This document shows, in pieces, positions 36,442 through 64,000 of a DNA stretch of 64,000 nt. The notes under the pieces are model-generated. The model was not told the origin of the DNA. It was given only the letters and a program-made list of their open reading frames with translations, and did no database searches. The translations under genes were made by a program, and so were the position numbers. The stretch spans positions 1-64,000 of the forward strand of contig OX597829.1 of the NCBI GenBank assembly GCA_951406725.2, written 5' to 3'. This DNA comes from Octopus vulgaris. Lineage: Eukaryota. Numbering within the stretch: position 1 is the stretch's first letter; each line of letters begins with the position of its first letter.

Positions 36442-38470
36442 TTTCTTCTTTCAAATTTGCTTCCATTTCTTGCCGAGTGTCTTCCCGACTCCTAGGGTAA
36501 AGAAACTCATAGTATACATTGGTAGGTCATTAAACCAAACTCAGTAGTTCGTTCATTTTTTTTTTTTTTTTAAGTTAAATTAAAATACATGAGTAGCAAC
36601 AGTTCTCACATCGACAATGCTCTTCTCAATACGTGTGATGTACCAGTTAAGACAATCTTTTGCACTTCTTGCAGGGATGGTAAGCCAGGGATCATTCTCA
36701 TATAATTTTTGGTTCCCTTCTTGATCATTCCTAGTGCTCCTACGATCACTGGTATTGTAACCGCCTTGAGATGCCACATTTTCTCAATTTCAATGAGTAG
36801 GTCTTTATATTTTCTGAGCTTGTCAAACTCTTTCGCTGAGATATTATGATCACAGGGGATGCTCATGTCGATCAATAAGCAAACTTTATTGTTTTGGTCT
36901 TTCACAACAATATCTGGTTTATTGGCCTTGATGGTTCGGTCTGTATGTACTGGAAGGTCCCACAGAATGGTTACATTTTCTCCTTCAGTTACAGCCTCAG
37001 GGTGGTGATTATACCACTTGTCGGCAGTTTTGATATTGTAATGCCGACTTATTAGCCAGTGGAGATATTGGCCAACTCTGTCATGTCTTAATTTATACTC
37101 CACTGGTGCTAAGACTTTACATCCAGAGATTAGGTGGTCCACTGTTTCAATCATGTCGTTGCAGAATCGGCATTTTGGGTCTGCTCCATTTTTCATCACA
37201 TTGGCCTGGTAGTTCCGGGTTAATAGGCTTTGATCTTGAGCAGCCAGGATGAAACCTTCGCTCTCTGCTTTTAGCCCTGAGCTCCGTAGCCACTGATGGG
37301 TTTGCTTCTGGTCAACATCAGCTTGTTTGCTGCGGGTCACATATTTGCCGTGCAGAGGTTTCTCCTCCCACCTATCAGCCAATTGCTCGTGCGCTTTTTT
37401 CATTGCCATCATTTTCACCTTCTTTGCAACAATAGTTGCCGTACTTCCCTCGGGTTGTTCAGTTTGGGTATCCTGCACGAGATCAATAGCAAATTTTTTG
37501 CTTTCCTTTATTATAGAATGAAGCTTCTTTCGTCTCTCGTGATTTTCCACGAGCTTTAGCATCCAGTCATTCGATATTTCGAGATATTTGGCCAGTCCAA
37601 TTGTGGTTGTTTTGTAAGCTAGTTCAAATTGGATCAGGCCTCGACCTCCTTGGGCTCTGGGAAGGTAAAGGCGATCTACGTCTGCCTTTGGGTGGTGCAT
37701 CCTATTACAACTCAGCAGCTTGCGTATTTTCCTATCTATATTCTTTACTTCTCTCATATTCCAGTTCAACACATTGTAGCTATAAGTAACAACTGGAACT
37801 GCTAAGGAATTTATAGCTAACACCTTGTTACGTGCATTTAGTTCAGATTTCAGGACTGCACGAACTCTCCTATAACATTCCTTCCTGATTTTCTCTTTCA
37901 TGCTTGCATGCTGAATACCAGAGCCTTCATTTATCCCTAAATATTTGTATGTTTGTTCTTGCTCAAGCTCTCTTATGACTGTGTCAACATCTAACACGAC
38001 TGAATTTGTGGTCTTCACTTTCCATTTCTGGAAAGTGGCCTTGGCACACTTCTCAAGTCCAAACACCATCCCGATGTCATCGCTGAATGCTTTCACGGTG
38101 CGCAATAGGCCTTGAAGTTCATTATTGTTTTTACCATAAAGTTTTAAGTCATCCATATAAAATAGATGGCTTATTTTTTTATTGGCAATTTTATACCCAT
38201 ACCCTGTTCTGTTTAATTCACTTGTAAGGGGTATTAGGGCTATGCAGAATATTAAAGATGAAAGTGAGTCACCTTGAAAAATTCCACAGTTGATGTTTAT
38301 ATTTTCTGAGGCAAGTAATCCATTAGAGTGGTATAATTGGAGATTCGTATTCCACAACGACATATTGTGCTTCAGGAAGTTTGAAATCACAGGGGAAATT
38401 TTGAAGATGTCCAGCGATCTCAAGATCCATGGATGCGGTATACTGTCGAAGGCCTTTTTATAGTCAATCC
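36441..38470 (-). mobile_element. R4/Dong-clade non-LTR retrotransposon (RT + CCHC + RLE), 5'-truncated, inserted in (TAA)n
   Basis: Uninterrupted ORF with IDYKKAFDS, GIFQGDSLS, YMDD, CRFC..ETVDHLISGC, RHD and PDIVV..IDMSIP..K..KY. Short 3' UTR. Pure (TTA)n on both flanks (36411-36440, 38471-38530). Confidence 0.92.
36606..38470 (-). CDS. Reverse transcriptase / restriction-like endonuclease ORF (N-terminally truncated) of the Dong-like element
   Basis: About 620 codons without a stop. The MFYIIII leader in the ORF track is read-through of flanking (TAA)n and is not part of the element. Confidence 0.85.
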
Positions 38471-38534
<64 letters not shown>

Positions 38535-39084
38535 AAACACACTGAAGCAAGCTGCTGTGACTAAAGTTGAATACGAAACAACGCTGAATCGAACTTCTTA
38601 GCCAGAACTTCAGTTGGTTATGCAGCGCCCTTGAGCACCTGCACATCAAACGCTTGGCCAAATAACACCTTGTAAAGGCATTTGATAGATGGAACTGGTA
38701 ATGAACCTGGCATGTATGTATTTGTACAAAGAATGGAATTCGCAATATTTCTAATTGTTTCATCACAATGTGGAAAATAAATAAATATTAATATTGCATT
38801 CATAATTTAGTAACCAAGCTTAGTCTAAAAATAGTTATATATATATATATTATATTATATTATATTATATTATATTATATTATATTATGTTTTATTATAT
38901 ATACATGTATATATATAACATGTTGAAAGTGCCGGTTCTCATCTGATAATCGAAGCCTAGTGAGTACTTAGACGGCTGGCTGCTTGGGAAACTTTGGTGC
39001 TGTAAGCATTTCACACTTTTCAATTGCGGTGTCGCAGCCTCAAGTTGATGTATATAAAAGAATAAAAGAATTATATATGTTATG

Positions 39085-50921: not shown

Positions 50922-50964
<43 letters not shown>

Positions 50965-51061
50965 TTGATCCAAACATGGAAGCACAAAAAAAAACAACAA
51001 CGCGAGGACGTGGAACAAATATAGTATTATTGGACGCTCAGGAAAGAAAGGAAGAAGGAGG

Positions 51062-51096
51062 GTTTAACGTTTCGAGCGGAGCTCTTCGTCAGAAAC
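51062..51096 (-). ncRNA. Minimal type I hammerhead ribozyme motif
   Basis: GTTT-CTGACGA-a-GAGC tcc GCTC-GAAAC-GTT-AAAC: canonical core, 4-bp stems I and II, palindromic ACGT stem III. Lies in a ~210-bp island between (TA)n tracts. Confidence 0.75.
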
Positions 51097-51689
51097 ATAG
51101 GAGAAGGAAAGATCCAGAGAAGGGAAGACAGAGGGGAAAAAATTGCCAACAGTACACACGCGGTCACAATATATATATAGATAGATAGATATATGCTTGC
51201 ATAAATGTGGACAACAAGAAAATGACTCACTTTCGAAAGAAGCTAAATTATCTTCTGGCGGCTGTTGTGTCAGCCTAAGAAAAAAAAAAGGAGTGCAGAT
51301 AATGACAACTCGTAGGAAAAAAATGGTATATTTCTATGGACAATCCCATAGTCACGTTTTCCTGCAACGATTTGTGTAATCAGCATCGTATGTTTTCATC
51401 TTGATTCCAGCTATAGTGTCACATAAAGAAAAATACGTTTGAACTATTTCTGACCTCGGTAATTTGCATGATTAAAACAAAATTTACCAAAGTTGAATAT
51501 CTTAGATTATTCAATGTCAGGAATATAGACACTGAAGAAGTAAAGCCTGTTAAATAACTTACGAGGTAAACTGTTGATTTATTGAAATCATGTGATGAAA
51601 GTGATGCTGGTACCTTCTGTCACCTTTCTAAGTGTGGATCTAAAAGGCAAGGATTAGTATAACTCCAGGTAAAAAGTAAACAGGGAATC

Positions 51690-60013: not shown

Positions 60014-60274
60014 GTCGAAGAAGAAGAAGGAGAAGATGAAGCAGAAGGAGAAGAAGATGATGAAAAAGAAAAGGAAGAAGATAAAGGAGGGGGGAGGAGG
60101 AGAAGTAGTAGAAGAAGTAGAAGAAGAAGAAGAAGAAGAAGAAGAAGAAGAAGAAGAAGAAGAAGACGAAGAAGAAGAAGAAGACGAAGAAGAAGAAGAA
60201 GACGAAGAAGAAGAAGAAGACAAGAAGAAGAAGAAGAAGAAGAAGAAGAAGAAGAAGAAGAGGACGTAGAAGAA

Positions 60275-60306
<32 letters not shown>

Positions 60307-60475
60307 AGAAGAATAAGAAGAAGAAGAAGAAGAAGAAGACGAAGAAAAGGAAGAAGAAGAAGAAGAAAAGAAGAAGAAGAAGAAGAAGAAGAAGAAGAAG
60401 AAGAAGAAGAAGAAGAAGAAGAAGAAGAAGAAGAAGAAGAAGAAGAAGAAGAAGAAGAAGAAGAAGAAGAAGAAG
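59463..60475 (+). repeat. (GAA)n and purine-rich tracts
   Basis: Pure (GAA)n at 59463-59573 and interrupted (GAA)n at about 60110-60475. Confidence 0.95.
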
Positions 60476-60871
60476 GGGATGAGAGATTGATTGCTGGATA
60501 GTTAGGAACATATATAGGTATACTGCAAATAAATATATAAATGGATGGATGTCAAACTGATAGCCAGTAAGTTAGCAAGCCAGCTAGCTGGCTAGAAAGA
60601 TAGAGAAATAGAGAGACAAGAAGAAGGCAAGCGAGACAGCTATCTAGAATAGATAGATGAAATTGTTGGTTGACAGATGGAGGACAAACAGAAATATAAA
60701 CAGATATCTATAGATAGGTTAGCAAGCGAAAAACATTGTTAGTCTATTGGCTAGACAGACAGACAGAGAGAGAACGATCGAGAGGTATACAAATAAAAGG
60801 AAAGGTATGTGGTTAGACAGATAATAGGTGACTGACAGAGAGACAGAGAAATTGACATATATATATATAGA

Positions 60872-61435
60872 CATATTCTGTTGTGTCTGGGGAGAGTCAT
60901 TTTCTGTTTGTGCCTTATAATATAACACACTCACCGGTAAAATTTCCACTTTTTTCTTATTTTTGTTCTCCTAAAATTTTCATTGCGTCTTTTAGGAGAA
61001 TAAAAATAAGAAAAAAGTGGAGATTTTACCGGTGAGTGTGTTATATTATAAGGCACAAACAGAAAATGACTCTCCCCAGACACAACAGAATATGCTTCAA
61101 CACACGAACTCATATAAAGAATCTTGCAAACCAAATCCCAAAACGAAATATAGGCATATAGATAATTCACTATATAGATTAAGCTGGATTGAAGTGTTTT
61201 AAAGCTGCATGCTTCTGTGAAAAAATTATAAAATAAATTTGCAGACAAATTGTGCAGGTAAGAGAAATAAAAACAGATAAGTTTAGTAGATGCGGTTTAA
61301 GTGTATTTGTTTTGGGAGTGACATAGCTATTTTATATTTGGCTTCAATAATGTTATGACAGAATACAAACAGTTGAGAACGTTTGTTCAGCAGAATTCTA
61401 ATAAATAAGAAAATTTCAGTGAAAAAGTTGACCAA
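60872..61435 (-). mobile_element. Penelope-like element 3' remnant with terminal hairpin
   Basis: 105-bp arms 60872-60976/60990-61094. Minus-strand LLNKRSQLFVFCHN resembles the LLNKRSE..C.H motif I recall from PLE GIY-YIG C-termini. Confidence 0.5.
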
Positions 61436-61705: not shown

Positions 61706-62042
61706 TCAAATTCAATATTTATCCTAATTATGTTGTTGGCTTCGTGGTCACAAACTTGGTCTCTTTGTTGAAAATGTTGTTTCAGTGTCACAGGGTGTGC
61801 TTCATATAACATCAGTATCGATTTGAGACCATTGTCACCTTCCTTGTGTGGGAAGTATAAAGAACACAGCGCACCACTCGGTCGTTATCGTGAGTGAGTC
61901 TAACTACTAAACTACATGCCCACATTAAAGATTTATAGGATTAAATGACACAAATTTATTGATCAATAAAACCCAACTCAAATCTCAGCTGTTATGCATT
62001 ACATTCACTCCTATCATGGAAAATGAACAATGAAAGCGAATT

Positions 62043-62483
62043 GGATCTTTTCGGTTTGACCGGCAGTTTTTAAAAATAATTTCCACGTAACTAAAAAATT
62101 TTAAACTTCGTATACTGGTAGAATGTGTTTATAAAACATCTTTTTCTCTTGACTTTATTGAGAAAATTCTATAGTTTGTAAGACAATTGTTTTTTTTTTT
62201 GTTTTTTTTTTCAATTTCTGTAATTTCAACCAATCAATGACGTCTATTGAGGTGAAAACATTCTGTGCCGTATGAATATGTCCCTCGTTTAAGAAACAGA
62301 TTGGGTTTATTTACATTTCTGAAGAAAAAAATATACCCTTTCCCCCACCCCTAACCCTAACCCTAACTAACCCTAACCCTAAAACAGATAGAAATGCAAT
62401 AGATCGATACTAGGGTCATAATTATGGGTGACAATTTCATATGACACCGCTAGAAAAAACTGCCGTTCAAACCGAAAAGATCC
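62043..62483. mobile_element. MITE with GG termini and 8-bp TSD (Merlin-like)
   Basis: About 29-bp TIRs ggatcttttcggtttga(c/a)cggcagttttt. TSD agcgaatt at 62035-62042 and 62484-62491. Internal (CCCTAA)n. Confidence 0.8.
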
Positions 62484-63385
62484 AGCGAATTTGTATTTTC
62501 ATTTTTTAAGTTTAAGTTTCATTTAATCCAACAGACAAACAATTCAACATCACAGTATTTTAGAAGGAAGTAATCCCGCAGAAAAAACAAACAAACAAAA
62601 AAGAAACCCAAACCTCACAGGGAATAAATTAATTAAAATAATGATTAATTACAAATAAATTAGAACACAATCGAATATATGTGAGAATTAAAATTGTAAA
62701 ATTTTAATTTAAGAATTTTTTTTGTTCACTTTATTCAAGAAATTGATATATTTGAATTGAATGTATGTATGATCGAAAGCGTTACAACCGTGACCATCCT
62801 GTTGTTTTGTATATTTTTTTTAATATATTGTTTCATGTGACCTATATTTAAAATGTTTCACTTAAAAGTTACTTGGCTGCAATTTTTTGTTGACTGCACA
62901 ACTGGGTGGTGATTCCCTGTTTGGGTCACCAGAGCCTGATGTTCGATATATCACATGCAATAATTTACAAATGTGTTTTTCAATCGGGACCACAATGATT
63001 TAAAGATTATTTTGGATGTAACTTTTTGCTAGCTGTACAACTGCGTGGTGGCTCCCCCGTTTGATTCATCGAAAACCGGTCTAGTGTATATCGCATGTAA
63101 TTTACAAACGGAGCCAAAATGATAGAGTGACTTCGATGATAAATATGAGGCGGTTAGAGACGTTAAATGTTGGTGATGGTAAACAAAAGAATGATTATGG
63201 CAGTAAATTCTTCTCAACAGTGGATGGAGTAGCAGGTATTTTGATCAAAATGAAACTTGCAAATTACTGTTGCAAATGTTTCTACAGAATTTTTGCTTAA
63301 CTTCAAAGTTTATATATATATATATATATACACATACTATTGCTACATCAGATTAATCCTTAATTTCAATATTGTCAATATATAT

Positions 63386-63947
63386 ATAATAGAAATATTA
63401 AAATAACTAAGTCTCTCTAAAAGAGAACAGCGGCAGCGTTCCCGAAAAATAATAGTTATCGCCATACTAATATGGCATTCTTATAAAAATAAGAAAAAAG
63501 CTGTCCGCTTATTAGCTCCATGAGGCCATCGCCTTAAGTTAGCTATTTGATACACAAACTGTATCCATATAACCTTCGAACAAGGGAGGTCAGTCGCTCC
63601 ACACTACTTGCCGCTGTTCTCTTTTAGAGAGACTTAGTTATTTTAATATTTCTATTATTGAAAACAAGTGGATGTATTCCACCGAAACTAGGTAAATAAA
63701 ACCATCGAACAGAGATTGTCGGAAGCGACACCTACTGGCTGGCTACGCTGCATTGAAAAGGGGCAATACCCCGAAACGCGTCTGTAGCTGCCGGTCAAGT
63801 AGTGTGGAGCGACTGACCTCCCTTGTTCGAAGGTTATATGGATACAGTTTGTGTATCAAATAGCTAACTTAAGGCGATGGCCTCATGGAGCTAATAAGCG
63901 GACAGCTTTTTTCTTATTTTTATAAGAATGCCATATTAGTATGGCGA

Positions 63948-63954
<7 letters not shown>
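63386..63954 (+). mobile_element. Penelope-like terminal-repeat (pLTR) fold-back element
   Basis: Interleaved inverted repeats 63386-63435/63609-63658 and 63452-63610/63796-63954, HHR motifs, and (TA)n flanks. Confidence 0.65.
63747..63788 (+). ncRNA. Hammerhead ribozyme motif with U3-A8 core
   Basis: GCTGCA-TTGAAAA-GGGG caata CCCC-GAAAC-GC-GTC-TGTAGC: 6-bp stem I, 4-bp stem II, palindromic ACGCGT stem III, GUC triplet. Confidence 0.75.

Positions 63955-64000
<46 letters not shown>

Follow-up and report, generated by a model that had tools for sequence, protein, structure and literature searches.

In a stretch of Octopus vulgaris DNA of 64,000 nucleotides (contig OX597829.1, positions 1 to 64,000, here called the window), positions 63386–63954 hold a set of identical inverted repeats around a hammerhead motif in which the C3-G8 pair is exchanged for U3-A8. 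What kind of element is this, and how did two copies of it come to lie in opposite orientations next to a (TA)n run? A preliminary description, made from the letters of the sequence, read the locus as a young pLTR of a Penelope-like element (PLE) formed by successive fold-back events. We suggest, with a probability of about 0.7, that the element is instead an animal non-LTR retrozyme in the form of two 5'-truncated arms lying head to head, which a Penelope-type enzyme likely inserted into (TA)n.

The insertion contains a single inversion

The two inverted repeats of the preliminary description, about 50 and 159 bp long, are both exact. The longer one pairs 63452–63610 with 63796–63954 (159 nt) and the shorter one pairs 63386–63435 with 63609–63658 (50 nt), each with 100% identity. 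The sense arm (63609–63954, plus strand) can be divided into the segments A (63609–63658), B (63659–63795) and C (63796–63954), which together cover 346 nt, or 0.96, of the 362-nt unit discussed below. The inverted arm (63386–63610, minus strand, 225 nt, assigned by exact identity) contains no hammerhead, and its reverse complement is exactly C+s+A of one unit, where s (63436–63451, minus strand) is a segment of 16 nt that closes the circle between C and A and is here present in the inverted arm only. As 63386–63610 is one contiguous C+s+A stretch, the two repeats that appeared interleaved belong to opposite ends of the same inverted arm. The locus therefore contains a single inversion rather than two. 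The arms meet head to head at one junction, 63609/63610, with a microhomology of 2 nt.

At its left end the insertion borders a short (AT)n, in fact (AT)5 (63378–63388), whose last three bases are shared with the end of the element as a microhomology. On the right side, the element ends in (TA)n, as had been noted before; the repeat starts at about 63952, reaches the end of the window at 64000 and continues beyond it, so that a target-site duplication cannot be read. TAT is common to element and target at both ends. The 3' end of the inverted arm corresponds to 63658, the terminus of the family, and this arm extends 66 nt further in the 3' direction than the sense arm, which ends at 63954.

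Since the two arms are identical, the insertion is recent, in agreement with the earlier reading of the event as young. A minor allele at 63639/63405 (approximately 24% of the depth in the public run X1 and 18% in X3) is present in both arms, as expected if both were copied from one template.

If a linear element had folded back on itself twice in succession (DNA template switching), giving two nested palindromes, this would account for the two distinct inverted repeats that are visible. However, one contiguous antisense stretch, which is present as such in other copies, explains both of them, and the arms meet without a hairpin loop. Segment s is missing from the sense arm and can therefore not have been copied from it, and contigs that run through C-s-A in one orientation contradict the fold-back reading directly. 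We consider this origin highly improbable, and the double fold-back of the preliminary description is replaced by the single inversion junction.

The arms derive from a closed 362-nt unit

In the order A-B-C-s-A, the segments form a self-closing unit of 362 nt with a GC content of 41%. All links of this circle are present in contigs that are independent of the locus. The link from A to B is found in contig 5 of run X1, and the link from B to C in contig 30 of run X7, which covers 63645–63853 with no differences and has A-B-C contiguous, as well as in contig 20 of X3. Contig 11 of X11 joins B, C, s and A in this order, and contig 25 of X7 also crosses s. Among the contigs listed, the end of C followed by s lies directly before 63609 in 9 contigs of X1 and 13 of X4. 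A head-to-tail organisation, either tandem or circularly permuted, is thus seen through the contig links of the circle. In the sense direction the locus itself does not complete a turn of the unit, and it has a single complete hammerhead; at best, then, it is a solo offspring copy.

The unit has no open reading frame; the longest stop-free frame on either strand is 55 aa. As a circle it is predicted to be strongly self-paired, with a minimum free energy of -121.9 kcal/mol compared with -83.8 ± 5.4 kcal/mol for shuffled sequences (z -7.1; none of 100 shuffles reached this value). Folding of the antisense circle is similar (z -7.0).

A predicted U3-A8 hammerhead in the sense arm

The hammerhead described earlier at 63747–63788, with a TTGAAAA core and a U3-A8 pair, stands as it was given. 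We call it motif 1; together with a distal extension of stem I it spans 63740–63793 on the plus strand and was delineated by descriptor and folding. The core UUGAAAA lies at 63753–63759. Stem I (63747–63752/63783–63788) has 6 bp, one of them G-U, and beyond an internal loop follows the distal stem (63740–63743/63790–63793). Stem II (63760–63763/63769–63772) has 4 bp, with G10.1 directly after A9 and GAAA on the 3' side. Stem III has 2 bp within the palindrome ACGCGU, and the predicted cut falls after GUC, between 63782 and 63783. The UAC internal loop and the CAAUA loop 2 may form tertiary loop-loop contacts that resemble the Schistosoma type.

A search of the window with a relaxed type I descriptor had been proposed as a check. 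With a strict type I descriptor that allows any Watson-Crick 3-8 pair, motif 1 is the sole match in the 64 kb, and none of 60 composition-matched shuffles contains a match. Rfam gave no hammerhead family on the element, even at an E-value of 10. In the circular unit, the stems of motif 1 have pairing probabilities of 0.94–1.0. The minimum of the cofold of two copies of motif 1 is a double hammerhead at -31.9 kcal/mol, compared with -11.8 kcal/mol for one copy with stem III open. From these predictions, motif 1 is likely a U3-A8 hammerhead with the canonical geometry of the retrozyme type. If this locus were transcribed by read-through, stem I would rarely form in the predicted fold (probability 0.09), and this genomic copy is therefore probably a dead end.

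Variants of motif 1 were taken from two listings, one of which contains 63639 and 63791 and the other, which ends at 63770, contains 63750 and 63757; both give depth fractions for each position without linkage between positions. The common changes are A63757C at the free N7 (21, 4 and 13% of the depth in X1, X4 and X3), G63750A in stem I, which turns G-U into A-U (35, 3 and 10%), C63770T in stem II, which turns G-C into G-U (0, 3 and 7%), and C63791T in the distal stem, also from G-C to G-U (20% in X1 and 10% in X3), where the partner G63742 varies to A as well. No variant at U3, U4, G5, A6, A8 or A9 is found among those listed. Two rare changes stand against this: G63747A, from a diverged subfamily, would break the outer pair of stem I if 63788 did not change with it, and A63745G lies in the internal loop of stem I and modifies it. 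The common variants listed spare the core or keep the pairs, which is compatible with function but is no proof by covariation.

The geometry of motif 1 and the closed unit also bear on whether the element is an orphan pLTR of an autonomous Penelope-like element, present as an inverted pair of 5'-truncated copies. Such a reading would fit the insertion footprint, which is as in PLEs (PMC8557442), the U3-A8 pair known from the pLTRs of Cercyon (PMC4209133) and the homology of retrozymes and pLTRs described in Xenopus (10.64898/2026.07.22.740005). Some loose contig ends, which exit the unit at 63699, 63715 and 63738, also point this way. However, the full 362-nt circle is seen in contigs without an ORF, and motif 1 has neither the helix II of 7–8 bp and helix I of 4–5 bp of the minimal hammerheads (min-HHRs) of S. 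mansoni nor the extra nucleotide between 9 and 10.1 that is common to metazoan min-HHRs. Moreover, the only reverse transcriptase (RT) match in the 24 ORFs scanned, of the 113 window ORFs of at least 100 aa, is 25 kb away and looks LINE-like. With an ORF-free closed circle and a canonical rather than minimal geometry, we find the pLTR proposed in the preliminary description unlikely, although it deserves consideration, and do not retain it as the main reading.

A hammerhead-like junction at the family end

The preliminary description also placed a second U3-A8 hammerhead at approximately 63653–63698. From folding, descriptors and variants, we find here a hammerhead-shaped three-way junction (motif 2, 63632–63693, plus strand), which contains the family terminus 63658. 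It fails as a type I hammerhead, as the first pair of stem I is A-A, a shifted stem I has a pairing probability of 0.00, and the base A15.1 (A63687) is G in 13, 9 and 32% of the contig depth in X1, X4 and X3. Lacking stem I and with A15.1 changed in 9–32% of the depth, the type I assignment was rejected. A loose descriptor fitted to motif 2 matches in 22 of 60 shuffled windows.

In the circle, the GAAAC side of motif 2 pairs with 63632–63638, in the exact A15.1-U16.1 register. This gives a type III permutation with a 7-bp stem III in register, a UUGAAAA core, stem II and GAAA. This fold requires insertions at three places, 4 nt behind the cut site, 3 nt behind A9 and 1 nt ahead of G12, and it loses by 3.3 kcal/mol to a hairpin in which the core is hidden. 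A descriptor for the type III permutation, fitted post hoc, matches 3 of 100 shuffled windows. Given the 4-nt insertion after the cut site and the hidden core, we do not count motif 2 as a type III hammerhead either, and it is predicted to be catalytically inactive. A heterodimer of motif 1 and motif 2 was also rejected, with a stem III duplex at +0.2 kcal/mol.

The commonest change at the conserved positions of motif 2 is A63687G, which keeps the helix (as U-G) and removes an invariant base of the catalytic core. The terminus 63658 falls exactly between stem I and the core. On the basis of this position, it can be speculated that motif 2 is a dead type III-permuted hammerhead that now serves as a landing or start signal for the Penelope reverse transcriptase, an idea that we regard as doubtful. 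If true, cleavage and recruitment of the mobiliser would be divided between two hammerheads of the same RNA, an active one and a dead one.

The family is abundant and of mixed age

The unit belongs to a family that is very abundant and of mixed age. Between 82 and 92% of the sampled words are found in 20 of the 24 public runs listed (10 studies, 7 organism labels), with some runs having 5–6 million letters. Contigs matching a 626-nt stretch number 2,676 in X1 and 2,072 in X3, at identities from above 99% down to under 90%; summed contig depths (1e5–1e6) were not taken as copy number. Since the family includes copies that are less than 90% alike, youth is shown for the insertion at 63386–63954 only.

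Scans for relatives elsewhere gave 2 matches in viral contigs, 0 and then 1 in metagenomes and 0 in genome contigs, all of them chance matches; the three matching loci align over 21–25 nt only, and no autonomous PLE with the ends of this element turned up.

The family terminus is a recurrent one. Position 63658 is followed by (TA)n in at least 17 contigs of X1, at least 14 of X4 and at least 2 of X16, while ends near 63954 are seen, among the contigs listed, in single contigs of X7 (at 63953) and X3 (at 63447) only. For X7 and X16, the status as RNA runs is guessed and the contigs carry no end information.

Diverged subfamilies, approximately 85% alike, are visible in X1, X3 and X4 at 63617–63700 and 63662–63781, with a different s segment and a different sequence after 63699. 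At 63738–63739, the 5' boundary of motif 1, contigs of X1, X3 and X16 leave or enter the unit, and five contigs of X1 include part of stem I and then continue as unrelated sequence.

The head-to-head layout is also not private to this locus. At least 17 other distinct joints of this kind, with breakpoints scattered along the unit, are found in Logan contigs at depths of 10–302; 15 are listed in one table of joints, with 27 more that are unlisted, and 2 come from another. The layout is therefore real in the family. This bears on whether the junction might have arisen in assembly, by the collapse of a high-copy repeat. None of the contigs listed for six public runs bridges 63609/63610, as would be seen with an artefact, and such structures are described as a source of trouble in short-read assemblies (PMC8557442). 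On the other hand, other individuals would not be expected to carry a junction private to the locus, and the other joints argue against an artefact, which we judge very unlikely.

The idea that inverted arms stop at the hammerhead cut site was considered as well, with 4 of 18 joints (this locus included) lying within 20 nt of it. It was rejected, as the stretch behind one table selects for such joints and those from the other table are scattered.

A model for the insertion

The layout of the insertion is Penelope-like, with an inverted 5'-truncated arm, a (TA)n target and one arm that is longer at its 3' end. We suggest the following scenario. A tandem master copy would be transcribed and its hammerheads would cut after GUC (63782), best when two copies pair through the ACGCGU palindrome, releasing monomers that may be circularised by a host ligase. 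A PLE protein with GIY-YIG and RT activities could then nick both strands of (TA)n, and each DNA end would prime on the same RNA (circular, or a multimer left uncut), using one of two sites that end in TAT, 63954 and the equivalent of 63658, which lie 66 nt apart. Both cDNAs would stop early, at 346 and 225 nt, and be joined head to head through the 2-nt microhomology. Because the sense arm crosses the cut site, the template would have been a circle or an uncut multimer. The footprint of the PLE type, i.e., the inverted 5'-truncated arm together with the (TA)n target, is present at this locus. The offset between the arm ends is 66 nt against a PLE tail of 30–40 bp, and the second priming site is seen in single contigs.

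In L1, twin priming yields 5' inversions. The same retrozyme could also have been mobilised through twin priming by a LINE outside the PLEs (Tx1, Dong/R4 or RTE). A LINE-type RT ORF lies within the window, and LINEs or PLEs are both named as candidate mobilisers of retrozymes (PMC7229834). However, each arm stops at an internal TAT that adjoins (TA)n, with neither poly(A) nor a repeat tail, and the inverted arm, which reaches 66 nt further in the 3' direction, fits the two internal start sites of PLEs better than priming from the RNA 3' end. A literature search for twin priming combined with Penelope found nothing relevant. We consider a LINE quite unlikely as the mobiliser and prefer a Penelope-type enzyme.

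Other elements in the window

A second, unrelated hammerhead lies at 51050–51110 on the minus strand, with its core at 51092. It has an ordinary C3-G8 core and the minimal geometry, with an extra nucleotide after A9, a palindromic ACGU stem III and a 4-bp stem I. Rfam gave no match on it. It sits in an element of approximately 200 bp (about 50960–51170) between (TA)n runs, which is likely the end of another Penelope-type family.

At 60872–61094 there is a near-perfect palindrome with arms of 105 nt (98%) and a 13-nt spacer that adjoins (TA)n and has an 18-nt low-complexity stretch in common with segment C. Another family may have left it as a short insertion with two arms. Rfam miRNA matches on it are below gathering and were dismissed, as they reflect the hairpin only.

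Further, the window contains a single copy of a MITE-like element of 443 bp (62042–62484) that is bounded by terminal inverted repeats of 30 nt (97%) and has (CCCTAA)n repeats inside, and a long imperfect (GAA)n microsatellite at about 60060–60480, which gives rise to spurious long ORFs. On the minus strand, 36606–38597 is a stop-free frame of 663 aa that matches RVT_1 (E-value 3.7e-20) and, weakly, zf-RVT. The frame is 5'-truncated at an (ATT)n run, and from its motifs it looks like a LINE of the Dong/R4 type. In a 2026 paper on O. vulgaris repeats, Dong-R4 is listed as recently active (PMC13282606).

Comparison with known systems

The retrozyme class, the U3-A8 exchange and the inverted (TA)n layout of PLEs are each already in print. 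What this family adds is their combination in a very abundant animal retrozyme that is missed by CUGANGA descriptors and by Rfam. A literature search found no report of octopus retrozymes, though Lunse et al. 2017 and several supplements may cover such motifs, and the word "ribozyme" is absent from the main text of the repeat paper (PMC13282606).

For the insertion, the closest systems are the PLEs that carry an endonuclease. Their genomic copies include inverted 5'-truncated ones with a one-sided tail and a bias for (TA)n (Craig et al. 2021, PMC8557442). Biochemical work on a PLE protein showed that in vitro it nicks both strands at AT-rich sites and extends them, and that its RT starts at two internal sites of the RNA, which explains the genomic tail (Frangieh et al. 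2024, PMC11167929). The octopus insertion is alike in its inverted truncated copy, its unequal ends, its (TA)n or AT-rich target and the internal RT starts proposed for it. It differs in the offset of 66 nt, where the tail described for PLEs is 30–40 bp, and in the unit, which has no PLE ORF.

The U3-A8 exchange has been described in about 1,300 matches from Schistosoma mansoni, tied to Cercyon PLEs, with the UUGAAAA heptamer itself in one example of the supplement (Cervera and de la Pena 2014, PMC4209133). The min-HHRs described there share with motif 1 the 3-8 exchange, UUGAAAA and a palindromic helix III suited to dimers. They differ in that they lie in pLTRs by an ORF or occur as single motifs, and in the extra nucleotide after A9, whereas motif 1 has a canonical geometry and a distal extension of stem I and is part of an ORF-free unit. 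The canonical type of the same study has the geometry of motif 1, namely a 6-bp helix I, a 4-bp helix II and a short palindromic helix III. Natural covariation to U3/A8 was also reported by Perreault et al. (2011, PMC3088659), who state that earlier work had shown activity in vitro. The examples given there are scattered, while here an abundant family seems to have the exchange as its rule.

Animal non-LTR retrozymes are described as 150–450 bp long (350–390 bp in mussel), with a GC content below 50% and a type I hammerhead, and RtcB ligated their monomers in vitro (Cervera and de la Pena 2020, PMC7229834). A 2026 preprint by Li, Clavereau and Pollet (10.64898/2026.07.22.740005) links retrozymes to pLTRs and asks for "two consecutive units". 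By that measure this locus falls short, and no tandem array of the family was seen. Compared with the retrozymes of these two sources, the octopus family differs in its U3-A8 core, where theirs is C3-G8, and in its dispersed, two-armed head-to-head insertions in (TA)n, where theirs is a plain tandem array. It is like them in its ORF-free unit of 362 nt, which is within the size range, its GC content of 41%, its type I hammerhead with a short helix III and a circle that is, here by prediction, strongly self-paired with the ribozyme free to fold. On the features tested, i.e., structure, size, GC content, absence of an ORF, closure and folding, all read from the sequence, the family belongs, as a putative member, with the animal non-LTR retrozymes. 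A PLE has been proposed as the mobiliser there too, on the basis of co-occurrence and homology (PMC7229834 and the 2026 preprint), and the insertion ends described here would add genomic support for the mobilisation of retrozymes by Penelope-type enzymes.
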